Counted from the stretch's first letter, positions 11,712-64,000 are shown. The stretch: 64,000 bases of DNA from Bdellovibrionales bacterium (GCA_050250255.1 JBFWOZ010000002.1:77655-141654); one strand, 5' to 3'. Numbers and translations are program-made. The notes: a model not told the origin generated them from the sequence alone.

Positions 11712-13295
11712 ATGTTAGACCATTCGATCGTACCAGAGGGGCAATCGTACATGGAAGATACAGAAAACAACCCGAAAAACACCATTTCGGACCAATTTGA
11801 TCTTTTTCTCAACTCACCAGCGGAGACAGCTCCGTTTGGATCTGAGAGTCTTGAGGAGAAGATTCGCGTGCCTTTTGGACCACTTACGGGCACCCAAAAC
11901 GCAGGAATAGGCCCTTTTTCTCTCGAATTTTGGACAAAGCTTAAAATTGATCTCCTGAATAAACATGCCTCGAACAAACCTTTTAAAAATTGGTTTGAAG
12001 CCGTAGAGTTTATCGATACGGATCTCGGGGATTATGGTTATGGCCTTCGTTTGCGGGTTCCTAGCGAGCTCCATAAATACTGGCTTTCTGAGAATGTTCT
12101 TGAAGAGTTAACTTCCGAAATTGCTCAACTTTATCGCGGTCCTTTCCGTGTAGAATTTATCGTTAGTGGCGCGGCTCAGGCTTCCTCCCATTACAGCACT
12201 CCAACCTCTGGAAATATTGAGACGGCCCCTGCGTCAGAAATCGTGGAGACCTCTTCCTCTAGTGGAAATCTCTATTTAAATCCTAATTATACTTTTGGTA
12301 CTTTTGTCGTTGGTCGAAATAACGAATTTGCTCATGCGGCTTGCTTCAATGTGGCCGAGCGCCCAGGAAGTGGATACAACCCTCTTTTTATCTGCGGACC
12401 AACGGGTATGGGTAAAACCCACTTACTCAATGCTGTAGGAAATCACATTCGAGATAAATTTCCTCAGATGAGAATTTGCTACCTTTCTGCAGAACGTTTT
12501 CTTAATGAATGTATCTCTGGAATTCGTCGAAATACGATGGATAAATTCCGACTGCGATATCGTGAAAGATGCGATGTTCTTTTAATTGATGATATTCAAA
12601 CTCTAGGGCGTGGCGAAGCTGTGCAGGATGAGTTTTTTCACACTCTGAATGATTTCTTTGAAACTCGAAGACAGGTCATTGTTGCGAGTGATCGCATGCC
12701 CAATGACATTCATGGTTTAGAAGATCGTATTCAATCTCGCCTCCAGTGGGGTTTGATTGCGGATATTCAGGTTTCTGATATGGAAACGCGTCTGGCGATT
12801 CTACGTTATAAAGCAGAGAAAAAAGGAGTGCGTCTTCCTGACGACGTAGCCAATTACATTGCCAGTATCTCGAAAAAATCGATTCGTGAGCTTGAAGGTA
12901 ACCTGAATCGCGTGACTATTCATATGGAGCTCTATGGTGGTCATTTAGGCCTGGAAGTGGCGAAAAAAGCCCTGATGGCGCAGGCTAGTCAGCTGGATAC
13001 TCTCACGCCTGATCAGATCCAAAAAATGGTGGCTGATGTCTTTAATGTGAAGATTCTCGATTTAAAGTCGAAAAGTCGTGGCCGTCCTTTGGTAACTGCG
13101 CGTCAAACAGCTATGGTTCTCATGAAAAACTATCTGAACCAGAGCGTCACTGATATTGGACGATTCTTTAATAAAGACCACTCAACGGTGATCAACGCAT
13201 TGCAGAGAATTGAGAATCAACGACTTGAAGATCGAAATTTAGATAATGTTATTAAAAACTTAGAGAGCAGAATCCACAATATTCTCGGCTTGTGA
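11712..13295 (+). CDS. dnaA: chromosomal replication initiator DnaA
   Basis: 527 aa with Walker A GPTGMGKTHLL, box VII/sensor motifs and a C-terminal DNA-binding domain (HSTVINA). The conserved N-terminal W...L...W segment starts only at ~aa 70. A GTG at 11868 with an AGGAG sequence 9 nt upstream is an alternative start. Confidence 0.95.
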   Translation: MLDHSIVPEGQSYMEDTENNPKNTISDQFDLFLNSPAETAPFGSESLEEKIRVPFGPLTGTQNAGIGPFSLEFWTKLKIDLLNKHASNKPFKNWFEAVEFIDTDLGDYGYGLRLRVPSELHKYWLSENVLEELTSEIAQLYRGPFRVEFIVSGAAQASSHYSTPTSGNIETAPASEIVETSSSSGNLYLNPNYTFGTFVVGRNNEFAHAACFNVAERPGSGYNPLFICGPTGMGKTHLLNAVGNHIRDKFPQMRICYLSAERFLNECISGIRRNTMDKFRLRYRERCDVLLIDDIQTLGRGEAVQDEFFHTLNDFFETRRQVIVASDRMPNDIHGLEDRIQSRLQWGLIADIQVSDMETRLAILRYKAEKKGVRLPDDVANYIASISKKSIRELEGNLNRVTIHMELYGGHLGLEVAKKALMAQASQLDTLTPDQIQKMVADVFNVKILDLKSKSRGRPLVTARQTAMVLMKNYLNQSVTDIGRFFNKDHSTVINALQRIENQRLEDRNLDNVIKNLESRIHNILGL

Positions 13296-28218: not shown

Positions 28219-29206
28219 GCTTCTCCTTAGCCTTTGTTTCGTCGGCTTTGAGCTTGGCTAAATCAATAGCCCATTTCAATGCTTGTATCATAGATTCGGG
28301 GTTGGCGCGATCTTTACCAAAGATGTCCTTTGCGGTGCCGTGATCAACGCTGGTTCTCACAAAAGGAAGTCCCATTGTAATATGTACGCCGGCAAGCCCA
28401 TGAATCATTTTAAAGGGGATTAATCCTTGGTCATGATAGGGACTTACGTAAATGGAATATTTTTTCCAGTTTTGTTTTTGAAATGCGACGTCAGGCACCA
28501 GAGGGCCGTCCACTGGCAACTTTTCTTTTTTCAGCTTTTCGATGAGGGGTAAAAAGTATTTCTGTTCTTCGTTTCCGATAAGGCCGCTCTCTCCTGCATG
28601 GGGATTCAGCCCCACGAGCGCGATGGGCTTAGAGGCTTGTTTCTTGGGAAGCCATTGTCTGAGCGTCATTGAGTGACGTATCGCCGCTTCAAGCCGCTCG
28701 GAAGAAAGTTGTCCTGCAATCTCCTCGACAGCTAAGTGTCCCGTCGCAAGGACTACAGAAAACTGATCGCCCACAAAAGACATGTAAAGAGGATTCGACT
28801 TCGCAATTCTTTTTAAAATTTCGGTGTGGCCTAAATCTTTTTGTCCACCCGCCACGATAGAAGTTTTGGAAAGAGGTGCGGTGGCGATAGCGTCGACATG
28901 CCCGTAAAGACCAGCCTTCGCAGATTCTTCGACCCAACTTCCCGGAGGTCGGTTGGAATTGATATCCACTAAAACCTTTGGAGAATCGAGAGAAACCTTA
29001 AGGGCTTCGGGCCAAGTGAGAACAGTTTGTCGTTTGAAATAAGAATCAAGTCGGCGTAAATATTTTTTTGATGCTTGCGGCGCGCGCCAGAGAAAAAAAT
29101 TGGCACCCACCTTGGGGCCAATCTTGATCAATGCCTTGGCCGTGATTTCGAGCCCGATACCATCCACATCGCCAGTTGTGATGACAATTTTCAGGGGCTT
29201 TTTCAC
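28202..29206 (-). CDS. pdxA: 4-hydroxythreonine-4-phosphate dehydrogenase PdxA
   Basis: It has the motifs GLNPHAGE and GLPFVRTSVDHGTA. The ORF extends to 29275. The GTG at 29206 (VKKPLKIVITTGD) overlaps the upstream TGA in a GTGA arrangement and gives a normal length of about 334 aa. Confidence 0.85.
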   Translation of the reverse strand: MKKPLKIVITTGDVDGIGLEITAKALIKIGPKVGANFFLWRAPQASKKYLRRLDSYFKRQTVLTWPEALKVSLDSPKVLVDINSNRPPGSWVEESAKAGLYGHVDAIATAPLSKTSIVAGGQKDLGHTEILKRIAKSNPLYMSFVGDQFSVVLATGHLAVEEIAGQLSSERLEAAIRHSMTLRQWLPKKQASKPIALVGLNPHAGESGLIGNEEQKYFLPLIEKLKKEKLPVDGPLVPDVAFQKQNWKKYSIYVSPYHDQGLIPFKMIHGLAGVHITMGLPFVRTSVDHGTAKDIFGKDRANPESMIQALKWAIDLAKLKADETKAKEKHENES

Positions 29207-30183
29207 TTGGAATTCATCGCAATGCCGGGCTCGTTGACTCGAATAAAAGATTCTCGTCGCTTCTGATCCAGCCAAAAGCTAAATTGTTTTTTGAAAGCCG
29301 CTTGATAAAGCACTTGGCGAATGCGCTCTTTCTCACCCTCAAGCTTTGGATCTGCAATTAAGCGTCGGTCCAAGAGTTTTAAGATATGAATACCGGTCTT
29401 GGTATAGACAAGACCCGTCACCTGACCAACCTCGACCTTTGCTGCCGCGGACTCAAGCTCTTTTAAAAACTCACCTGTTTTAAATGTTCCAAGCAGACCA
29501 CCGGAAGAAAAATTAGGATCTTCACTGTACTTTGAAGCAAGAGTCTCAAAAGATTCTCCAGAGCGAATGCGCTCAAGAACCTGTTTCGCTTTTCGCTCCG
29601 CATTTTTAAAGGAGCCACCATCATTCATAAAAAGAATGTGCGAAACTTTGTATTCGAAGCTGTCCTTTGCCGTCGCCCCCCCACTTCGATGAGTTAAGTA
29701 GTAGGCCGAAATTTCCTCATCAGAAATTTTAATTTTTGAAGTCACCGATTGTTCGATAATGGACTGACGTTCAAGACGTTTTTTTAAAAACTCCTGATAT
29801 TCAGAAAAACTAGTGCCCTGACTTTTTAGCGCTTCTTTGAGCTGCGTACGATTAATGCCGTTTCGGCTCGTGATTTTACTGATTTCTTTTTCAACCTGCT
29901 CAATCGTGACCGTAAGACCTTTCTTCTTCACTTCCGAATCGATCACCTTTTCATCCACCATATGACGAATGAGAGCTTTGCGATCCTTCAAGAGACCTTG
30001 GCTGTCTTCGGATAAGAGATCATCGACAATCGCGCCGGTTTTGAGTCGTTGGGCAAATCGATCAACATCGGTTTTCAAAATAATATCGTCATTCACAATG
30101 GCAATGACTCGCTCAACAACATCACCGGCTGTGGCGAAAGAAAAGGAGAGAAGGAAAAGAGATGTGATGAATGGCTTTATCAT
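29203..30183 (-). CDS. SurA-like periplasmic chaperone / parvulin PPIase
   Basis: 326 aa. A signal peptide is followed by a SurA-N-like segment (VIAIVNDDIILKTDVDR) and one parvulin domain (HILF...GGLLG...GIHILKLLD). Confidence 0.8.
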   Translation of the reverse strand: MIKPFITSLFLLSFSFATAGDVVERVIAIVNDDIILKTDVDRFAQRLKTGAIVDDLLSEDSQGLLKDRKALIRHMVDEKVIDSEVKKKGLTVTIEQVEKEISKITSRNGINRTQLKEALKSQGTSFSEYQEFLKKRLERQSIIEQSVTSKIKISDEEISAYYLTHRSGGATAKDSFEYKVSHILFMNDGGSFKNAERKAKQVLERIRSGESFETLASKYSEDPNFSSGGLLGTFKTGEFLKELESAAAKVEVGQVTGLVYTKTGIHILKLLDRRLIADPKLEGEKERIRQVLYQAAFKKQFSFWLDQKRRESFIRVNEPGIAMNSK

Positions 30184-31157
30184 TTTTGCCCCTCAGTGTG
30201 CACGTTTACAGAACGAATCAAAGCGTCGTCCTTCAATACTTTGGCACTTTTTGTCTGTTCGCCCAACCATTTTTCAAACATTTCCCGCTCTTTCTGCAGT
30301 CGTAAGTTTTTTATAATAGTTGGTCGTGCGCCTGCAAGGGAGAGTTGCGTGGCGGGCTTTTTTCCAAGCGCTTCAAAAATATGGTAACCATAGGCGCTTT
30401 TAATAATATCGCTGCGGGCGCCCACATTCATTTTAAAGGCGTCGTCGAATACGCCAAGGACGCCTTTTTCCACCCATCCGGTGTCCCCACCCTCTTTTGA
30501 CTCAGGTGCGATAGAAAATTCGCGAGCCATTTTCTCGAGGCCCCCGCCTTGACGAATACGAGCCATCACGCGTCGGGCATCGTCTTCTTTTTCGAGAACG
30601 ACCTGCCGAAGGCGTATGCGTGCCGGTTTTTCAAAGTCCGATTTATGGCTGCTGTAGTATTCTTGCACTTCCTGGTCGGTGGGCCCTGCGACAGACTTCG
30701 ACAATTTTTCGAAGACGAGTCGTTCGTAAAGATTTTGTTTTAAGCCCTCTTTCCAGCGCTCAAAGGTCATTCCCTCTTGAGAAAAAGCATTTCGAAAGGA
30801 AATATCGTCAGGGTAAGAGGAGCGCACGCGATTGATTTCGGCCTGTAGAGCGCTCTCATCGATGGTAATGCCATTCTTGATGGCCCAGGCTTCAGTGAGG
30901 GAAGCGGCAATAAATTCAGAAACGATTTCTTCTTTTACTCGATCCAAACTCTCTTTTTGTTTTGCATAGAGAGCGTCATACTCTTTAATTCGAGAGACCA
31001 CTCTTCGTCCAAACTCTTCCGAAGTCAGTTTTTTTTCATTCACAACGACAAGTGGTTTTTGGGGAAGCTCTTCACTAGAGCGAGTGCAGCCTATTCCTAA
31101 ATAGGAAAAAAGAAAAAAGCCCAAGACATGGGCTTGTAAGATCGAAAGCTTTTTCAT
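30180..31157 (-). CDS. parvulin-type PPIase lipoprotein (PrsA/SurA-like)
   Basis: The track start is a TTG at 31169. The ATG at 31157 gives MKKLSILQAHVLGFFLFSYLGIGC, which has a lipobox. The parvulin domain is RLRQVVL...GDTGWV...YGYHIFE. Confidence 0.75.
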   Translation of the reverse strand: MKKLSILQAHVLGFFLFSYLGIGCTRSSEELPQKPLVVVNEKKLTSEEFGRRVVSRIKEYDALYAKQKESLDRVKEEIVSEFIAASLTEAWAIKNGITIDESALQAEINRVRSSYPDDISFRNAFSQEGMTFERWKEGLKQNLYERLVFEKLSKSVAGPTDQEVQEYYSSHKSDFEKPARIRLRQVVLEKEDDARRVMARIRQGGGLEKMAREFSIAPESKEGGDTGWVEKGVLGVFDDAFKMNVGARSDIIKSAYGYHIFEALGKKPATQLSLAGARPTIIKNLRLQKEREMFEKWLGEQTKSAKVLKDDALIRSVNVHTEGQK

Positions 31158-31171
31158 AGGAAAATCCAAAT

Positions 31172-31990
31172 TTAAAATTTGTTCTTCAGAACTCTAACTT
31201 TGTAGCTGGATTTCAACTTTTCAAAGTATTTGTCGAAAATTTGTTTTCGTTTTTCGTCGAAAACAGCGGCGCGAATTTGTCGCTTGTTTGCTTTTGTGTA
31301 GGGGTTGCGACCCGTGAGCTTTATAATATGAAATCCAAACTCAGTTTCGACTAAGCGAGAAATCGCCCCCACTTTTAGGAGCTCGGCCGTGTTGTAGTAC
31401 GCGGGAACAAGAGTGATTTTAGTCTGCCAGCCGATATCTCCACCCGCTTGTTTTGTTGCGGTATCGTCCGAGTAGAGATTGACGAGTTCTTCGAAGCTGC
31501 GCTTGCTGGATTTCACTTGAGAGTAAATGTCATCAGCACGTTTTTTAGCAGCTGCACGTTCAGTAGCAGAAGAGCCTGGTTTGATCTCAATCAAGATGTG
31601 GCTTGTTCTGATTTCAGGATTTTTTTTATAGTGAGCAACGAGATCGTTCTCGTTAATTTTAATACCTTCGACGGTTTTGCCGAGCTCTTTTTCGATTAAA
31701 CCTTTATAAATTTCCTGCTGAATGCGTTCGGCTACAATCGGATCGTCTTTAATTTTTCGTTTTTCAGCCTCAAGAAGACCAATTTTATAACGAATAAGAT
31801 CTTCTAAGAAGAGTTCACGTGGAGGAGGATTTAATGACTGCTTTCGAACCTCTTCGTAGCGCTTACTAAACTCATCGATCGCGATTTTTTCATCGCCAAC
31901 AGTAGCAATCACTTCGGATTGTGCCTGGGCTGCAAAAGAAAAAAAGATCAATCCAAAGGCAATGTATAGACTCAAAGTAGTTTTCATCAT
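31172..31990 (-). CDS. parvulin-type PPIase, secreted (SurA/PpiC-like)
   Basis: 272 aa with a signal peptide (FSFAAQAQS) and a parvulin domain (TSHILI...GGDIGW...FGFHIIKL). Confidence 0.75.
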   Translation of the reverse strand: MMKTTLSLYIAFGLIFFSFAAQAQSEVIATVGDEKIAIDEFSKRYEEVRKQSLNPPPRELFLEDLIRYKIGLLEAEKRKIKDDPIVAERIQQEIYKGLIEKELGKTVEGIKINENDLVAHYKKNPEIRTSHILIEIKPGSSATERAAAKKRADDIYSQVKSSKRSFEELVNLYSDDTATKQAGGDIGWQTKITLVPAYYNTAELLKVGAISRLVETEFGFHIIKLTGRNPYTKANKRQIRAAVFDEKRKQIFDKYFEKLKSSYKVRVLKNKF

Positions 31991-34770: not shown

Positions 34771-36417
34771 ATGAATAAGTTTTTATTTATTGCCACGACT
34801 TTGATGGCATCAGTGGTATTTGCAAAAACGAAAACGCCAGAAGCAGTGCCCGGCGAATTCGTTGTTAAATTGAAGCCAGCATTCGTTTCAATTTCGGCAC
34901 AAGCGTTATCTCAGCAACTGCAAGCTCAAGTAAAAGAAGTGATCAACAGAGAGGGCGATCTCGTACTTGTACAAAAACAAGGTACACGCAAATCCGCAAT
35001 CGCAAGCCTCAGCTCAACGGGCATTGTGGAGTATGCAGAACCAAACTTCATCTACCGCATTGGTGGGATGACACCAGACGATGCTCAGTACAAAGAACTT
35101 TGGGGAATGAAAAACACAGGACAAACTGTGAGTAACGTACCGGGCGTTGCGGGCATTGATATCAATGCAGAAAAAGCTTGGGAAATCACAACAGGCTCTA
35201 AAAATGTGATCGTTGGAGTGATCGATACGGGCGTGGACTTCAATATTCCAGATCTAAAAGCAACAGCTTGGGTGAACGAAGCGGAGGCCAAGGGTCGTGC
35301 TGGCGTTGATGATGACAAAAACGGCTATGTTGATGACATCAACGGATACGACTTTGTAAACAACGACGGCGATCCAACAGATGATCATGGGCACGGCTCT
35401 CATGTTTCTGGAACCATCGGTGGTCAGGGAAATAACGGCATGGACGTTGTTGGTGTAAACTGGAACGTTACTATTATGGGGCTTAAGTTCCTTAGCGCCT
35501 CTGGAAGCGGATCGCTTGCATCTGCAATCAAAGCTATCGATTATGCGACAATGATGGGCGCTCATTTTACGAGCAACTCATGGGGTGGCGGTGGATTTTC
35601 TCAAGCCCTCTTTGATTCCATCAAAAAAGCGAACGACAAAAATATGTTGTTTATCGCTGCCGCTGGAAACAACGGAACAAACAACGATACGACTCCTCAA
35701 TATCCCGCGAACTACCAAATTCCAAACGTGATCTCAGTTGCGGCGATCACCAATACGGGTGCAAAGGCGAGCTTCTCTTGTTATGGCGCGAGAACGGTTC
35801 ACGTAGGTGCTCCAGGAAATTACATTCTCAGCACGATTCCGATGGCGCTTGATGGTCAAGATGGAAAGCGTGATGGTCTTGCGAGCTGGAGAGGAACATC
35901 AATGGCGACTCCGCACGTTTCAGGTGTTGCGGCACTTGTTCTTGCGAAATATCCAGGCATGTCAGCGATGGAACTTAAAGATCGTCTTGTGAAAACGGCA
36001 CGTCCTCTTTCTGGCATGAAGGGTGTTGTGAGTAGCGGTGGCATCGTAGATGCGTACAACGCTCTCACGAATACAATGCCGCCGCCAGATGCGAACGATC
36101 CTGCCAACTGGCCGCAAGTGGATCACATGCTCTCTTCACCACACCCTTATGGCAATAACGTGAATCAAACGTTCACCGTAACGATTCCGGATGCGACAAA
36201 GATTGCGCTCACTTTTTCAAAATTTGAGACAGAAGCTGGGTACGACATCGTGAAATTTTATGATGGCGCGGGAGTAGAGCTTGGTTCGTTTTCTGGAAAC
36301 CACACTGGAGAGTTTTCGCCCGTTGCTATGGGGAATACGATCAAGATGGTTTTCACAACTGACGGAGATGTGACTCAGTACGGGTTTGATATCACGAAGG
36401 TTGCGATTCAGAAGTAA
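34771..36417 (+). CDS. secreted subtilisin-like (S8) serine protease with I9-like propeptide and CUB-like C-terminal domain
   Basis: 548 aa with a signal peptide. The catalytic triad contexts are VGVIDTGVD, HGHGSHVSGTIG and GTSMATPHVSG. The C-terminal 95 aa read SPHPYGNN...IALTFSKFETEAGYDIVKFYDG...MVFTTDGDVTQYGF. Confidence 0.9.
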   Translation: MNKFLFIATTLMASVVFAKTKTPEAVPGEFVVKLKPAFVSISAQALSQQLQAQVKEVINREGDLVLVQKQGTRKSAIASLSSTGIVEYAEPNFIYRIGGMTPDDAQYKELWGMKNTGQTVSNVPGVAGIDINAEKAWEITTGSKNVIVGVIDTGVDFNIPDLKATAWVNEAEAKGRAGVDDDKNGYVDDINGYDFVNNDGDPTDDHGHGSHVSGTIGGQGNNGMDVVGVNWNVTIMGLKFLSASGSGSLASAIKAIDYATMMGAHFTSNSWGGGGFSQALFDSIKKANDKNMLFIAAAGNNGTNNDTTPQYPANYQIPNVISVAAITNTGAKASFSCYGARTVHVGAPGNYILSTIPMALDGQDGKRDGLASWRGTSMATPHVSGVAALVLAKYPGMSAMELKDRLVKTARPLSGMKGVVSSGGIVDAYNALTNTMPPPDANDPANWPQVDHMLSSPHPYGNNVNQTFTVTIPDATKIALTFSKFETEAGYDIVKFYDGAGVELGSFSGNHTGEFSPVAMGNTIKMVFTTDGDVTQYGFDITKVAIQK

Positions 36418-58260: not shown

Positions 58261-58716
58261 TTACTTTTTCCATCTTAAAAGGACATCTGGTTCCTTTTCT
58301 TCGTTTCCAGTCCCGTCAGTCCTCTTTATAACAATGAAACCGTGCTTTTCATAAAAGCATTGCGCAACAAGATTCTTTTGGAATGTCCACAATTCCAGTG
58401 ATTGAGCGTGCTGTTTTGCTAGAGCGAGCAATTTACTACCGAGGCCAAACTTTTGAAACTGGGGCAAAATGTACAGGTGATTCACCCACTCATCTCTGAA
58501 TGCAATGAAACCAATAATTCTCTCGCTCTTGAGTTCAATCGCAACATAAACATGGTTTTCAGCAAAAACCACGTTGGTGAAATAGTCAGCGTCTTCATCC
58601 GAGGTGTGAATTTCTGGCAGAAATGGCATGGCATTCTGTCTAGATGCCTTAAAAACTCGGGCGACCTCAGACATCTGTTGCTTACTCGATTTCTCAATTT
58701 TGATTTTTGTTAACAC
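58261..58716 (-). CDS. GNAT-family N-acetyltransferase
   Basis: 151 aa with the acetyl-CoA motif QFQKFGLGSKLL. Confidence 0.8.
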   Translation of the reverse strand: MLTKIKIEKSSKQQMSEVARVFKASRQNAMPFLPEIHTSDEDADYFTNVVFAENHVYVAIELKSERIIGFIAFRDEWVNHLYILPQFQKFGLGSKLLALAKQHAQSLELWTFQKNLVAQCFYEKHGFIVIKRTDGTGNEEKEPDVLLRWKK

Positions 58717-58776
58717 TGAGGCTCCATGGGCTTCGGTCTAAGGAGCAAAGAAAGCTCCTCGGCGATTCAAAAGATA

Positions 58777-58799
58777 GGGAGATATTGTCAGCATCTCCC
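58777..58799 (-). terminator. intrinsic terminator-like hairpin
   Basis: The sequence is GGGAGAT-N9-ATCTCCC with T/A tracts on both sides. It lies 12 nt downstream of the 58811 GNAT stop. Confidence 0.5.
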
Positions 58800-58810
58800 A
58801 TTTTTTCAAC

Positions 58811-59347
58811 CTAGTTACTAGAGAACTCTTCACTGAAGTGAGCAGCACCCTTCAGTTTAGAGAATCCATCGGCTCCAAGCTCTAGGCCAAGAAATGCTTC
58901 ATCTGGAACTTCAAATGCGCATTTCAGCCCAAATGTCGAAGCCGCCGGCTTAAACCCAAATTTTGGATAATAATCTGGGTGTCCAACCAAGAGTACACCT
59001 TCGAAACCCCGCTCTTTCAAAATTCGCAGTCCCTCTTTTATAAGTTTCGACCCTATTCCCGTTTTTTGCTTTGAAGGTGCAACAGCCATAGGTGCCAAAG
59101 CAACTATCCTGCTATTATTGTCAGCACTACCAAAAGACATTGGGCTGAACGCAATATGACCAACTATCTTATCCTCTTCTAAAGCAACTAGAGATAACGT
59201 TAATTTGCCACGCTTTCTCAGGGTATCTACGATCCTTGCTTCTTCATCAGTTTCGAAGGCGCTTTTATTCAAAGCAAAGATAGCTTCAATATCGTTCTCA
59301 GTTTCAACTCGAATTTTCAAAATTGGTTCCAATCGTTCTATAGACAA
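58811..59347 (-). CDS. GNAT-family N-acetyltransferase (YhbS-like)
   Basis: 178 aa with KQKTGIGSKLI and GHPDYYPKFGF. Confidence 0.8.
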   Translation of the reverse strand: MSIERLEPILKIRVETENDIEAIFALNKSAFETDEEARIVDTLRKRGKLTLSLVALEEDKIVGHIAFSPMSFGSADNNSRIVALAPMAVAPSKQKTGIGSKLIKEGLRILKERGFEGVLLVGHPDYYPKFGFKPAASTFGLKCAFEVPDEAFLGLELGADGFSKLKGAAHFSEEFSSN

Positions 59348-59592
59348 AAAAACTCCGCCTCGATTCAGCGGATCGAAAAAATAACGTGAAATTTCGCTTT
59401 TTTGGCAGGAGCCTAGACAATCATGAAAGAAATTTTGACCAAGCAGTCTGCTTTGTCAAGCACTTGGTCCGAAACCCAATGGTTTGTGGTCACGGTATGA
59501 CCAGAAAAGCGTTGAACAAAAATGTGAGGCGCTTAAGCAAGCTCGGGTGTTTAATAAATCGAGGACCTTCGCCGTGTTCGGGGTAGCGTGTT

Positions 59593-60225
59593 CTATATTG
59601 AGTTGGCAAGCAACTCGAGGAGCGAAGTTTGCAACTCCGAGCCGTGGGGCTTTTGCACAAGGACTTCGTGGTCGCGGATCAGGATGCTCGCATGGACTTT
59701 TGAGGGTTCTACGAATTGGTCGTGCATAGGTTTTACTTGTTGGTTGAATTGGTCGCGGACTCCTTCGGGAGTACGGGCACGTTCGCGGACGTCTCTTTGT
59801 AGTCTTCGTTGGAAGCGAGTGTCTTCATCCGCCTCGAGAAAAATGGATTCGTCGAAAAGGGGTAGGAGGAAATCTTGCGACAGCAGGAGGATTCCGTCGA
59901 CGAGGATATACGCGCGGGGCTCAAACGTAAGACATTCCTTTTTTCGTGTGTGAGTTGAAAAATCGTAAATGGGGACTTGGATACTCTTGTTGTCTTTTAA
60001 TTCTTTGAGATGTTTCTCTAGTAGAGGAAAATCGATGGAGCTTGGATGATCGAAGTTCACTGCACCGCCATCGTGATCAAATTTTTTGCTCTGATCAATG
60101 TAATAACTGTCTTGTCCTAAGATGGCGCACTCTTTAAAGCCTAGGGTCTCTTGAATTTTTTTAGCGAGCGTTGTTTTGCCACAACCACTTCCGCCGGTGA
60201 GGGCTACGATCCAGGGCTTTTTCAT
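59593..60225 (-). CDS. udk: uridine kinase
   Basis: It has the Walker A motif TGGSGCGKTT. The ATG at 60225 (MKKPWIVALTGG) fits Udk better than the track start at 60276, which overlaps upp. Confidence 0.8.
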   Translation of the reverse strand: MKKPWIVALTGGSGCGKTTLAKKIQETLGFKECAILGQDSYYIDQSKKFDHDGGAVNFDHPSSIDFPLLEKHLKELKDNKSIQVPIYDFSTHTRKKECLTFEPRAYILVDGILLLSQDFLLPLFDESIFLEADEDTRFQRRLQRDVRERARTPEGVRDQFNQQVKPMHDQFVEPSKVHASILIRDHEVLVQKPHGSELQTSLLELLANSI

Positions 60226-60241
60226 TTTGTTCTTCCAAAAA

Positions 60242-60868
60242 CTATTGTGTTTTGTAAAGCCTGTCACCGGCATCACCCAAACCAGGAATTAAGTAACCGA
60301 GCTCACTCATCTCGGGCTCTACAGCACAAGCATAGACTTTCACGTCTGGGTGGAAGTGATGAAGTTTTTCAAGTCCGTGTTTAGAAGTCAAAATGCAAAG
60401 AAGAGCGATGGGGCCGACTTCGAATTGTTTTAAACGGTCCACGCAGGCCACGGCCGTATCTCCGGTTGCAAGAAGAGGATCGGCAAGAAAAACGTGTTTC
60501 CCCTTCATAGAGGGTGGAAGCTTAAAATAGTACTCCACCGTATTATTAATAAATTTGTCGCGGTAAATCCCAATATGTCCTGCGGCCGCGAAAGGCATCA
60601 TGCTAAGCAGTCCATCGAGCATTCCATTTCCCGCTCGCATGATGGAAACGATCACCGGCCAATCAAGGATCTTTTCGCACTTCATTTTGGCCATGGGAGT
60701 TTCGATGTCGATGTTGTCGGTCTCCAGATCACGAGTCGCTTCATAGGCAATCAATCGCGCGAGCTCGTTCATGGCTCCTCGAAAGCTTGCGCTGTCTGTA
60801 TTTTTATCCCGTAATTTCGCAAGGGTGTGGCGAACGATAGGGTGATCAACAAGAATTAAATTTTTCAT
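60242..60868 (-). CDS. upp: uracil phosphoribosyltransferase
   Basis: The sequence runs MKNLILVDHPIVRHTLAKLRDKNT...DPLLATGDTA...IPGLGDAGDRLY. The ATG at 60868 has an AGGAGT SD sequence 6 nt upstream. The track ORF opens at 60895. Confidence 0.9.
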   Translation of the reverse strand: MKNLILVDHPIVRHTLAKLRDKNTDSASFRGAMNELARLIAYEATRDLETDNIDIETPMAKMKCEKILDWPVIVSIMRAGNGMLDGLLSMMPFAAAGHIGIYRDKFINNTVEYYFKLPPSMKGKHVFLADPLLATGDTAVACVDRLKQFEVGPIALLCILTSKHGLEKLHHFHPDVKVYACAVEPEMSELGYLIPGLGDAGDRLYKTQ

Positions 60869-60878
60869 ATCCATACTC

Positions 60879-62099
60879 CTAAAAAACCGTTCCATCGCTG
60901 ATGATATTCAAAGGAGGTTCTCCTCCGGGTCGTTTTTCTTTTGCGATTTTTCGCCCTGCGTGCCAGGTGCCCCCCTCGAGAACCTTAGCGAGTGGCAGCT
61001 CTTCTTTGGTCATTTTTAATTTTTCGCGAATTTTGTCTCCGATGAGATCGAGAAGAGAAACCGTTAGGGCTCTCCACTCAATCACCAGATCGGTCTCAGG
61101 TGCGTGCTTCTTTTTTAAAAGCTCAGAATTTCTTAACTCAATAAGACCGGCATCGATGAATAGTCCACCGTTGCGATACTCGGCGAGTCCGGTGAGCTCA
61201 TCAACACCCTCAACGGTGACCCCCATTTCAATAATGGGCACGAGAAGAGAGTAGGTCAGCCATTGAGAAAGTTTATGAAAAGCGACGAGTCCCTCGGTGG
61301 AGTTTGGTTTCCCAAAACCAGAATAATTCCACACGTCTCCCAGGCTCACGGAGCCCAGACGTAAACGAGAAGGCCAAATGTCTCCCAAATAGTTTAATAC
61401 AAAATCTAAAACCTTTACGGCTTTGAGAGTTTTGGAGTTTTCCTGCAAAAGCACATCGAGCATATCCCCAATACGACCATTTTTAAAAATCGTAGGATGT
61501 TTTTCTATAACGACAGCAAGTTGGTTGAGGAGATGGATGCGCCCCTCCACTCCAATGAGGGGGTTAGAAGACGAAATTTGAAAGTGTTTTTCTAGATCGG
61601 CGGGCTTCAGATTTTTTAGACCTGCGCTGTTGGCTTGAAGTGGTTTATTTTTGTCTCCCGAAAAACCGCCGGCAAGAAACATATGGTAACTTGCGACCGC
61701 AAGACCTTCTGAGCGCGCGAAAATTTTCTGTTCGGGACTTTCAACATACTTCCAGTTATCTCCGGCTCCCGCATCGAGCAAAACGGAGACAACGATCAAA
61801 TCAATTTTTGATTTAGCCGCGTCTAAAGCGGAAACAGCACCTAGTTTTTCTACCATTTGCTGAGTGCGGTTCACGCCGCCAGCATTCAGGTGCCCGTTTC
61901 GAGAGTGAAAAGGAATCTTTAGATCTGGATAGTTATCGTGGATCACGGAAAGAACGTAATCAGAGACGGCACCTAGTTTTTCTAAGTTCACCTTAAAGTG
62001 AGTTTTCCCATCCAGAGCCATTTGGAAAATCTTTTTGGTACTTTCTCTTACGGCGCGAGGGCTTAAAATGTAATCAATGTCTTTTTGAGTAAAATTCAT
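60879..62099 (-). CDS. DUF1688-family protein (URC4/urg3-like)
   Basis: 406 aa. The pattern HSRNGHL...DAGAGDNWKY...FHKLSQWLTYSL...LAEYRNGGLFID...EWRALTV...LEGGTWHAGR...ISDGTVF matches my recollection of fungal URC4/urg3. Confidence 0.65.
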   Translation of the reverse strand: MNFTQKDIDYILSPRAVRESTKKIFQMALDGKTHFKVNLEKLGAVSDYVLSVIHDNYPDLKIPFHSRNGHLNAGGVNRTQQMVEKLGAVSALDAAKSKIDLIVVSVLLDAGAGDNWKYVESPEQKIFARSEGLAVASYHMFLAGGFSGDKNKPLQANSAGLKNLKPADLEKHFQISSSNPLIGVEGRIHLLNQLAVVIEKHPTIFKNGRIGDMLDVLLQENSKTLKAVKVLDFVLNYLGDIWPSRLRLGSVSLGDVWNYSGFGKPNSTEGLVAFHKLSQWLTYSLLVPIIEMGVTVEGVDELTGLAEYRNGGLFIDAGLIELRNSELLKKKHAPETDLVIEWRALTVSLLDLIGDKIREKLKMTKEELPLAKVLEGGTWHAGRKIAKEKRPGGEPPLNIISDGTVF

Positions 62100-62107
62100 G
62101 AAACTTT

Positions 62108-63388
62108 TTATTCCTCAAGCTTTCGACCTTTAATGCGATCTAGGTCTTTGCCCTTTTTAATCCGTTTTGTATTTTTTGTGAAATAACCGGCCGCACGTTT
62201 TGCCTCAAGTTCGACTTGCGCATCTTCCGGGATCAGGTGATCGGGAATTTCAAAACGATTCACAACTTCAATTCCAGAGTTCACGATGGCGTTGTACTTC
62301 ATATTACTCATCGACATGAGGTTGTGAATTTTTTTAATTCCAAACCAGTTGAGAACGTCGGGCATAAGCTCTTGAAAACGAGCATCTTCCACACCGGCAA
62401 CACACTGAGTGCGTTTGAAATAAGTGGCGGCAGAATCTCCACCCTCTTGACGCTTTCTTGCGTTATATACGAGAAACTTTGTGACCTCGCCAAGGGCGCG
62501 GCCTTCTTTTCGATAATAAACTATGATGCCGACGCCTCCGCGCTGGGCGGTGCGAACAGCTTCTTCGATTCCGTGAACAAGGTAGGGCCTGCAAGTACAA
62601 ATGTCTGAACCGAAAACGTCGGAGCCGTTACACTCATCATGAACGCGAGCGGTGAGTTCCACCTTTGGGTTGCTCAGATCTTTGTGATCACCAAAAATAT
62701 AAGCGGTCGTGCTTCCAATAGGTGGAAGCATGACCTTTAAGTCGGAGCGAGTGACAAGCTCTGGAAACATGCCGCCGGTTTCAAGAAACAATTTTTTTCT
62801 TAATTCACCCTCGTCAATTTTAATTCTCTTGGCAATTCCGGGAAGATACCAAACAGGTTCAAAGGCCACCTTTGTCACTTTGAGTTCTTTTGTTTTTGTC
62901 ACATGTTCGCCATCAATAGGAATAAGTCCCTTGTCGATAGAATGAATGATCTCAGGAATGGTCAGGTGAGCTTGCGTGACCGCGATAGTTGGGCGAATGC
63001 TAAATCCCTTATCGAGATACTCACTAAAGTTTTCGACGATGTTGGAACCCCATGGATCAATAGAAACAATTTTCTCAGGATCGGTCCATGAAGGGAACGG
63101 ACCAATTTGTGAGGTCACTTGCGTGTTGTGAAGATCTGCTTTGAAATCTTCCGGGTAGTGACCGGCCGCAATTGAAAGCGCACGGTAAACGGTGTAGCCG
63201 CCGCCATGAGAGCCGATGGCATTTCGCAACTGTTGGTTGTTGGTGGTTGCGATAATCGGTCCGCGTTGTTTGGCGTTTTTTGCGCCCCAATTGATTTGCG
63301 GACGATCTTTAAAGATCATGTTTTTGTGAGAGGTTAAAACCACGTGCGAGGGCTTTTTAAACTCTTCTTTTTTAGCTTGCTTTTTCAT
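62108..63388 (-). CDS. GTP cyclohydrolase II-like protein with long N-terminal domain (URC1/urg1-like)
   Basis: The C-terminal half has the GCHII pattern RVHDECNGSDVFGSDICTCRPYL...YYRKEGRALG. The N-terminal ~200 aa lack RibB motifs. The ATG at 63388 overlaps the upstream TGA in an ATGA arrangement. The track ORF opens at 63451. Confidence 0.7.
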   Translation of the reverse strand: MKKQAKKEEFKKPSHVVLTSHKNMIFKDRPQINWGAKNAKQRGPIIATTNNQQLRNAIGSHGGGYTVYRALSIAAGHYPEDFKADLHNTQVTSQIGPFPSWTDPEKIVSIDPWGSNIVENFSEYLDKGFSIRPTIAVTQAHLTIPEIIHSIDKGLIPIDGEHVTKTKELKVTKVAFEPVWYLPGIAKRIKIDEGELRKKLFLETGGMFPELVTRSDLKVMLPPIGSTTAYIFGDHKDLSNPKVELTARVHDECNGSDVFGSDICTCRPYLVHGIEEAVRTAQRGGVGIIVYYRKEGRALGEVTKFLVYNARKRQEGGDSAATYFKRTQCVAGVEDARFQELMPDVLNWFGIKKIHNLMSMSNMKYNAIVNSGIEVVNRFEIPDHLIPEDAQVELEAKRAAGYFTKNTKRIKKGKDLDRIKGRKLEE

Positions 63389-64000
63389 GACATCCAGGTT
63401 GCGTCGTTTTGATTTTGCCATTTTGTTGTTACCTTTTTTATATTTGTCCAAAAATTTAAACTATGATCTCCGGTGATATCACCGTGACCAAATTTCGATT
63501 CGTTAATTCCACCGAAGGAGAAGGGCTCTCTTGGAACGGGAACGCCGATGTTCACGCCAATCATTCCCGCCTTTGCGTTGGCAGAAATAAAATCAGCAAT
63601 GCCACCTGTGTTAGTAAACACGGAGGCCGCATTTCCATAAGGATTTTTATTTTCTACTTCGAGAGCCTCTTTTAGGCCCTTCGTGCGCACGATACTGAGA
63701 ACGGGACCAAAGAGTTCAAGTGTTGCAGCTTCGCTGTCGGGCTCCACCTGATCTAAAATCGTAGGTCCCAGCCAGTAACCACCTTCATACTCTTTGGGTA
63801 CATTTACTTTTCTGCCATCTAAAAGAATGCGTGCGCCAGATTTTTCTGCGCGGTCGATGGCAGATTTTAAAAACTCCAACTGGGTTTTTGAAATGATCGC
63901 GCCCATATCTTCGCCCAGGCGGACCTGAGAGGCGGCGTTCACAATACTTTGAATTTGGTTCTCTGGATTATTCACCGGCAGCAGAACGCTCGCGGCCATA
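63385..64000 (-). CDS. CoA-acylating (methyl)malonate-semialdehyde dehydrogenase-like ALDH, N-terminal part outside the window
   Basis: The C-terminal 204 aa include NPYGNAASVFT and GVNIGVPVPREPFSFGG...KVTTKW. The listed start Met sits in what looks like the ...C-M-A... catalytic-Cys context, so the ORF continues beyond base 64000. Confidence 0.75.
   Translation of the reverse strand, partial: MAASVLLPVNNPENQIQSIVNAASQVRLGEDMGAIISKTQLEFLKSAIDRAEKSGARILLDGRKVNVPKEYEGGYWLGPTILDQVEPDSEAATLELFGPVLSIVRTKGLKEALEVENKNPYGNAASVFTNTGGIADFISANAKAGMIGVNIGVPVPREPFSFGGINESKFGHGDITGDHSLNFWTNIKKVTTKWQNQNDATWMS

Follow-up and report, generated by a model that had tools for sequence, protein, structure and literature searches.

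The URC, Rut and reductive routes of uracil breakdown all pass through the C3 intermediate malonate semialdehyde. Like URC, the Rut (rutA-G) and reductive pathways carry out bacterial uracil catabolism via this compound, but their ring-opening enzymes are not homologous to those of URC; whereas they act on the free base and release ammonia or carbamate, URC acts on a nucleotide and releases urea. In the yeast Lachancea kluyveri, URC1 and URC6 turn uracil into ribosylurea and 3-hydroxypropionate, and URC4 turns ribosylurea into urea (PMC7530994). The S. pombe genes urg1 (GTP cyclohydrolase II-like), urg2 (uracil phosphoribosyltransferase, UPRT) and urg3 (DUF1688) form a uracil-inducible cluster (PMC2174524), and a passage of PMC3869809 that cites Andersen 2008 states that URC1 and URC4, with their genomic organisation around UPRT, are conserved in many bacteria. 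In the genome of a Bdellovibrionales bacterium (GCA_050250255.1), a stretch of 64,000 nucleotides (JBFWOZ010000002.1:77655-141654, the whole of which is called the window here) ends in five minus-strand genes (59593-64000) that, judging from protein family assignments and gene order, constitute a URC-type pyrimidine breakdown pathway with a probability of about 0.8. This operon is an ordinary representative of a pathway described earlier from both yeasts and bacteria: publications cover the URC pathway, its occurrence among bacteria and the step catalysed by UTP cyclohydrolase, and public annotation already names the URC4 homologue, so that the cluster is less novel than an earlier interpretation of this DNA (the sequence-only reading) had supposed. 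What is new here is the remote homology of URC4 to the N-glycosidase Qng1 that profile and model comparisons indicate.

Read directly from the sequence, the five co-directional open reading frames (ORFs) follow one another in the order aldehyde dehydrogenase (ALDH), URC1-like, URC4, upp, udk with spacings of -4, 8, 10 and 16 nt (Table 1), as closely packed as the sequence-only reading had described them. The TGA of the ALDH gene overlaps the ATG of the URC1-like gene in an ATGA that couples their translation; the TAA of the URC1-like gene is 8 nt from the ATG of URC4 (62099), and the upp stop codon is 16 nt from the ATG of udk (60225). The five genes form a real, tightly packed operon, and their arrangement is far beyond chance; this order is found again in dozens of species-level genomes. 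The set includes homologues of URC1, URC4, UPRT and uridine kinase, all of them translationally coupled, in keeping with the original proposal of a URC-type pyrimidine catabolic operon. The Upp protein scores 221 bits against TIGR01091 (cut-off 208) and Udk 216 bits against NF004018 (cut-off 180), and the strong AGGAGT that had been noted in front of upp is where it was said to be. The most likely start of upp is 60868 (208 aa) rather than the longest-ORF start at 60895, to judge from the family profile, which begins at that methionine, and from an independent gene call on a Logan contig; by the same two kinds of evidence, 60225 (210 aa) is the likeliest start of udk, not the longest-ORF position 60276.

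Table 1. Positions of the operon features, counted from the first nucleotide of the window
Feature	Position	Strand	Basis or remark
MMSDH-like ALDH, 3' part (204 codons)	63385..64000, start beyond window	-	PF00171 E=2e-39; TIGR01722 best NCBIfam match
ATGA, overlap of ALDH stop and URC1 start	63385..63388	-	read from sequence
URC1/UrcA-type cyclohydrolase (predicted UTP cyclohydrolase), 426 aa	62108..63388	-	PF12471 + PF00925; NF005536
URC4/urg3 (DUF1688), 406 aa, C-terminus ...ISDGTVF	60879..62099	-	PF07958 E=4e-145, full length
AGGAGT Shine-Dalgarno sequence of upp, overlapping URC4 TAG	60875..60880	-	6 nt 5' of ATG 60868
upp, uracil phosphoribosyltransferase, 208 aa	60242..60868	-	PF14681 E=2.5e-63; TIGR01091
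udk, uridine/cytidine kinase, 210 aa	59593..60225	-	NF004018; PF00485
Weak hairpin and T-run, ~220 nt past udk stop	59354..59372	-	pattern scan; weakly supported possible operon terminator

Upp would make UMP from uracil and phosphoribosyl pyrophosphate (PRPP), and Udk would make UMP from uridine and ATP, as expected of proteins that score above curated family cut-offs. Housekeeping kinases encoded outside the operon, PyrH and Ndk, would presumably carry UMP to UTP. The URC1-like zinc enzyme, to go by the literature on its family, would be a UTP cyclohydrolase, and the analogy of GTP cyclohydrolase II together with the yeast metabolite data suggests pyrophosphate, ribosylurea-5'-phosphate and malonate semialdehyde as its products. 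URC4, with a helix-hairpin-helix (HhH) glycosylase fold suggested by modelling and profile homology, would cleave the N-glycosidic bond of ribosylurea-5'-phosphate, giving urea and ribose-5-phosphate, and the ribose phosphate could be recycled to PRPP. The ALDH, of the methylmalonate-semialdehyde dehydrogenase (MMSDH) type, would be likely, from its family and its conserved linkage, to convert malonate semialdehyde, CoA and NAD+ to acetyl-CoA, CO2 and NADH. Taken together, the operon would most likely yield urea, ribose phosphate and acetyl-CoA from uracil and uridine. The description of the operon as self-contained went too far: the UMP-to-UTP kinases lie outside it, and genes that use urea are absent from the operon, from the window and from the flanks of the best 80 related loci.

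Members of the DUF1688 family are numerous, with at least 8000 matches in a word-indexed protein search, 2330 clusters at 50% identity in an exhaustive search, and at least 597 loci among the species representatives of GTDB. The five window proteins were compared by tblastn with the best 80 of these at least 597 loci, the denominators differing by gene. In the Bdellovibrionota, which include Bdellovibrio bacteriovorus Bd16, Bacteriovorax and Halobacteriovorax, the gene order is ALDH-URC1-URC4-upp-udk: URC1 is adjacent in 46 of 46 loci and upp in 45 of 45, and ALDH is present in 36 of 38 and udk in 37 of 42. The Myxococcota (Archangium, Cystobacter, Vitiosangium) have ALDH-URC1-URC4-upp, each of the three partners of URC4 being found in 4/4 loci and udk in 0/4. 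Clusters of the Alphaproteobacteria (URC1 3/3, upp 3/3, ALDH 0/3, udk 0/3) and Cyanobacteria (URC1 17/24, upp 13/25, ALDH 0/23, udk 0/24) consist of URC1, URC4 and upp only, and Pseudoalteromonas denitrificans (locus L082, 6074-9921) has the order UPRT-URC1-URC4-UPRT, with two upp paralogues and neither ALDH nor udk. The neighbourhood of DUF1688, GTP cyclohydrolase II-like protein and upp that the sequence-only reading singled out for a survey recurs in these lineages, together with ALDH and udk in Bdellovibrionota and with ALDH in Myxococcota. The closest relative (68% identity) carries all five genes too, followed by the neighbours seen downstream in the window; its ALDH is 492 aa long and is preceded by the unrelated genes ligA and gatCAB, which indicates that the operon starts at the ALDH gene.

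Clustering of the ORFs from the best 80 loci brought up no recurrent families other than these five, and no urease, urea carboxylase, permease, regulator, phosphatase or URC8-like reductase was among the recurring ORFs. By Pfam scan, the flanking DNA in Bdellovibrio, Bacteriovoracaceae and Myxococcota contained unrelated genes only, none of them a further conserved neighbour; the window likewise yielded no additional neighbour of these kinds, and no urea amidolyase (URC3,5) or other urea-using gene was found in the window or within 10 kb on either side of the best 80 loci. One contig labelled Candidatus Sericytochromatia (locus L031, CAYFGW010000127.1) carries the full ALDH-URC1-URC4-upp-udk set, unlike 26 cyanobacterial loci, and may be mis-binned or may reflect horizontal transfer.

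The fungal URC systems (L. kluyveri URC1-6, URC8 and URK1; S. pombe urg1/urg2/urg3) likewise have clustered homologues of URC1, URC4, URC6/urg2 and uridine kinase, and the expected products, urea and a C3 unit, are the same. The bacterial genes differ in forming a single translationally coupled operon, in having an MMSDH-type dehydrogenase, predicted to yield acetyl-CoA, where the fungi have the URC8 reductase, which yields 3-hydroxypropionate, and in being without a linked urea amidolyase (URC3,5), Zn-finger regulator (URC2) or permease.

The sequence-only reading assigned the 406-aa protein to DUF1688, and its assignment agrees with the NCBI name of the identical protein, 'URC4/urg3 family protein'. 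An AlphaFold model of URC4 made from 58 homologues (pLDDT 93.7, pTM 0.92) was compared with the PDB by Foldseek and matched 11 Qng1 chains with E values of 7.5e-10 to 3.7e-8 (TM score 0.63 when normalised by the query and 0.78 by the target); these Qng1/DUF2419 structures were the only significant matches, the next one having E=1.5. At the level of sequence, URC4 as a single sequence had zero matches to PDB sequences, and a profile of 58 closely related sequences returned noise only from the PDB, without Qng1. The Q_salvage family (PF10343) was the second-best Pfam match of the window's URC4 (11.9 bits, E=0.16), and sub-threshold matches to it were found in 36 of the 58 family members (best E=8.8e-5). 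A profile of 60 diverse URC4 sequences (38-55% identical) aligned by hhalign with 20 vertebrate QNG1 sequences at a probability of 88% (E=3e-6, score 52), as against scores of 16.8 +/- 3.1 (maximum 24.6) for 40 column shuffles and 18.3 for the reversed profile. The signal was clear only with this more diverse profile, and with the shallow profile of 58 sequences it was marginal (E=0.012, score 27 versus a shuffle maximum of 24). The precomputed Pfam list of a vertebrate QNG1 cluster (P0355) holds PF07958 (DUF1688) beside PF10343, which is a reciprocal hint of kinship.

The hhalign alignment pairs F274-H275-K276 of URC4 with F205-Y206-K207 of QNG1, A306-E307-Y308-R309 with A238-D239-Y240-R241, and E341-W-R343 with E277-I-R279. 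Among the 60 diverse URC4 sequences, K276 is conserved in 57, E307 in 57, Y308 in 58 and R309 in all 60, and the C-terminal residue is exactly Phe (F406 in the window) in 59. In the Qng1 protein of S. thermophilus (StQng1), K199 sets the orientation of the ribose, on which Y232 stacks; D231 is proposed to be the nucleophile, K233 contacts the 5'-phosphate, and the last residue, the invariant Y323, contributes its C-terminal carboxylate to the active site (PMC9881137). The two families thus have in common the HhH-glycosylase fold, homologous profiles, the HhH lysine, the [D/E]-Y-[K/R] and E-x-R motifs and an invariant C-terminal aromatic residue. They differ in overall sequence, which is only ~14-17% identical, in length, URC4 being ~80 residues longer, and in the base pocket, where URC4 has Ala/Gly at the position of the Asn that is the general acid of Qng1; such a difference would be expected with urea, not queuine, as the leaving group.

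On these profile and model comparisons, URC4 is a remote homologue of Qng1 with what appears to be the same catalytic apparatus. Because Qng1 is a metal-independent N-glycosidase that prefers the 5'-monophosphate of queuosine over the nucleoside (PMC9881137), the homology suggests that URC4 is an N-glycosidase converting ribosylurea-5'-phosphate to urea and ribose-5-phosphate, an N-ribosyl 5'-phosphate substrate being a further predicted likeness to Qng1. In the model, E307 would act as catalytic acid, R309 would hold the phosphate, and the ribose would be held by K276 and F406, the latter through its C-terminal carboxylate. A full-text search on DUF1688 found no mention of a link between URC4 and Qng1 in the searchable literature, and the paper on the Qng1 structure (PMC9881137) does not mention URC4 or urg3.

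The 204-aa ALDH fragment begins directly past the expected catalytic Cys, which falls just outside the window. Its best NCBIfam match is the MMSDH family (TIGR01722, 153 bits), in line with the malonate/methylmalonate-semialdehyde type that had been recognised from the sequence alone. In B. bacteriovorus Bd16, the full-length orthologue reaches 455.9 bits with TIGR01722, above the cut-off of 448.5, and the next ALDH family scores 287. In the beta-alanine/Bau route (BauC/MmsA), too, an MMSDH-type enzyme makes acetyl-CoA. The suggestion that the C3 product is oxidised to acetyl-CoA by the ALDH would fit the conservation of an MMSDH-type first gene.

The 426-aa URC1-like protein joins an N-terminal GTP_CH_N domain (PF12471, E=4e-74) to a GTP_cyclohydro2 domain (PF00925, E=1e-15) with the zinc pattern C253-x10-C264-x-C266. 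Both statements of the sequence-only reading about it, that the cyclohydrolase zinc site is in the C-terminal half and that the N-terminal part is not RibB, are borne out; a Pfam profile search found no RibB/dihydroxybutanone phosphate (DHBP) synthase domain (PF00926) in the protein. It scores 699 bits against NF005536 (cut-off 403) and matches PDB entries 7EJ3 and 7EEV end to end (E=6e-167, residues 14-425 on 15-422). These entries presumably represent the published bacterial UTP cyclohydrolase UrcA, which would then resemble the window protein over the full length of this alignment, in its two domains and in its triad of zinc-binding Cys residues; the enzyme studied came from a different organism, and its operon context with respect to ALDH and udk may differ. 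Zhang et al. reportedly described a bacterial 'UTP cyclohydrolase' in ACS Catal in 2021. Their work (ACS Catal 2021;11:8895, 'UTP cyclohydrolase') is cited as a URC pathway reference in PMC12507026, and a review (PMC9499338) describes a two-step hydrolysis of UTP by UrcA during uracil breakdown. The 7EJ3/7EEV alignment and this literature make out of date the earlier statement that the chemistry of URC1 is unresolved and its bacterial homologues uncharacterised, and since UrcA hydrolyses UTP, the substrate for an assay would be UTP and not, as had been suggested, UMP.

In the NCBI record of the identical product, the 426-aa protein is named 'GTP cyclohydrolase II'. Proteins of the URC1/UrcA type are called by this name throughout NCBI and JGI, and NCBIfam NF005536 bears it as well; it is probably a systematic misannotation of UTP cyclohydrolases.

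Several points weigh against the URC reading as set out here. At the outset of the pathway, both the identity of 7EJ3/7EEV with UrcA and the exact products assigned to UrcA are presumed. At its end, the cluster has neither a linked urease or urea amidolyase nor a linked nucleobase transporter, which leaves a role in nitrogen acquisition unproven. The window's URC4 was rejected as a member of PF10343 because its 11.9 bits fall below the gathering score of 25, and its putative nucleophile or catalytic acid is Glu, not Asp as in Qng1. Yeast urc4 mutants reportedly accumulate the nucleoside ribosylurea (Bjornberg 2010), and this bears on the phosphorylation state of the substrate. The yeast models likewise have URC4 degrading ribosylurea to urea (PMC7530994), and the substrate might then be dephosphorylated ribosylurea, or a ring-opened ribosyl-ureido intermediate, in a pathway otherwise as proposed. 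Such a substrate is unlikely, given that GTP cyclohydrolase II-type chemistry leaves a 5'-monophosphate on the ribosyl product, that Qng1, the sole structural relative of URC4, prefers the 5'-monophosphate (PMC9881137), that the invariant R309 aligns with the phosphate contact of Qng1 (K233 in StQng1, R241 in human), and that none of the best 80 loci has a linked phosphatase gene by ORF clustering. Ribosylurea-5'-phosphate is taken as the more probable substrate of URC4 in what follows.

The ALDH step has its own difficulties. With only 204 ALDH residues in the window, and with a Bacteriovoracaceae orthologue (locus L003) scoring 414.4 bits, under the TIGR01722 cut-off of 448.5, CoA-acylating chemistry is not assured. 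The enzyme might be CoA-independent and make malonate, might act on another aldehyde or might lie outside the pathway, its position being a lineage-specific accident; the cyanobacterial, alphaproteobacterial and Pseudoalteromonas clusters, from which it is missing, would agree with this. Together these alternatives are improbable, even more so than a different URC4 substrate: the stop/start overlap with URC1 and the conservation of the ALDH as first gene in two phyla, Bdellovibrionota and Myxococcota, despite unrelated flanks tie it to the pathway, MMSDH is by far the top ALDH family (456 versus 287 bits), and malonate semialdehyde is the C3 intermediate of every route considered here. The oxidation of malonate semialdehyde to acetyl-CoA is therefore retained as the likely reaction. 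Hardly credible is the remaining alternative, that the 426-aa protein is a GTP cyclohydrolase II with a housekeeping role in riboflavin synthesis, located beside upp and udk, and that the cluster serves salvage and cofactor synthesis, not catabolism: its database name, its PF00925 domain and its conserved zinc Cys triad would suit such a role, but by profile comparison it is clearly not RibA (TIGR00505 52.4 bits versus a cut-off of 205.85; NF001591 62 versus 148), RibBA models give 40-54 bits against cut-offs of 486-764, its N-terminal domain is PF12471 and not DHBP synthase, its full-length match to 7EJ3/7EEV contrasts with an E value of only 1.6e-7 for E. coli RibA, and its linkage to DUF1688 and upp is invariable across dozens of genomes.

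Within the URC pathway as preferred here, the conserved and coupled MMSDH gene of Bdellovibrionota and Myxococcota offers independent genomic support for malonate semialdehyde as the C3 product, and points to a bacterial variant of URC that would yield acetyl-CoA in place of 3-hydroxypropionate. For DUF1688, so far a domain of unknown function, the homology of URC4 to Qng1 supplies a hypothesis that names a reaction, the phosphorylation state of the substrate and the catalytic residues. Bdellovibrionota and Myxococcota are the two main predatory lineages, and the occurrence of the ALDH-linked form in both suggests a possible harvest of carbon and energy, rather than nitrogen, from prey pyrimidines. 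Both lines can be joined in a more tentative proposal, which at present falls somewhat short of an even chance: URC4 would be a divergent HhH-glycosylase that cleaves N-ribosylurea-5'-phosphate by means of Glu307, Lys276, Arg309 and the C-terminal carboxylate, and the ALDH-first operon of the two phyla would draw carbon and energy from the pyrimidine nucleotides of prey, as acetyl-CoA and recycled ribose phosphate, with urea excreted, unlike the nitrogen-scavenging yeast. If this were true, the last URC enzyme to be without an assigned chemistry (DUF1688/URC4) would gain one, with its own C-terminal carboxylate predicted to take part. B. bacteriovorus is culturable and genetically manipulable, and would be a tractable host for such a study.

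Within the operon, pattern scans for internal promoters and terminators gave counts no higher than shuffle expectation, and an Rfam scan of the whole window had zero matches. The hairpin on the 3' side of udk has a fold z-score of -0.07, and sites of this kind are not above shuffle expectation. Downstream of it (59372-59354), after 7 nt, comes the TTG start codon of a GNAT acetyltransferase gene, the first of two (58261-59347, minus strand) that are absent from the closest relative's locus. The 245-nt spacer 3' of udk (59348-59592) also contains a promoter-like TTGACA-16-CAAAAT at 59459-59432.

The surroundings of the operon in the window are housekeeping genes of the chromosomal origin (parAB, gidAB, mnmE, yidC, dnaA, dnaN, recF, gyrBA, dnaB, ftsK and dap), and no ribA/ribBA, urease, urea carboxylase or nucleobase permease gene was found in the 64 kb. 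Between positions 1 and 21000, two atpF-like genes, parB, parA, rsmG, mnmG, mnmE, a jag-like R3H gene and yidC are on the minus strand, and dnaA (11712-13295), dnaN, recF, gyrB and gyrA are on the plus strand, with a spacer at ~10.9-11.7 kb that is likely to be oriC. Three successive genes for SurA/PPIC-type peptidyl-prolyl isomerases lie beside pdxA on the minus strand (29203-31990), an unusual tandem of periplasmic chaperone paralogues. On the plus strand, positions 34771-36417 encode a subtilase (Peptidase_S8) whose prodomain is fervidolysin-like and whose C-terminal domain is of the CUB type, which is uncommon among bacteria; this protein may be a secreted protease of a predator.

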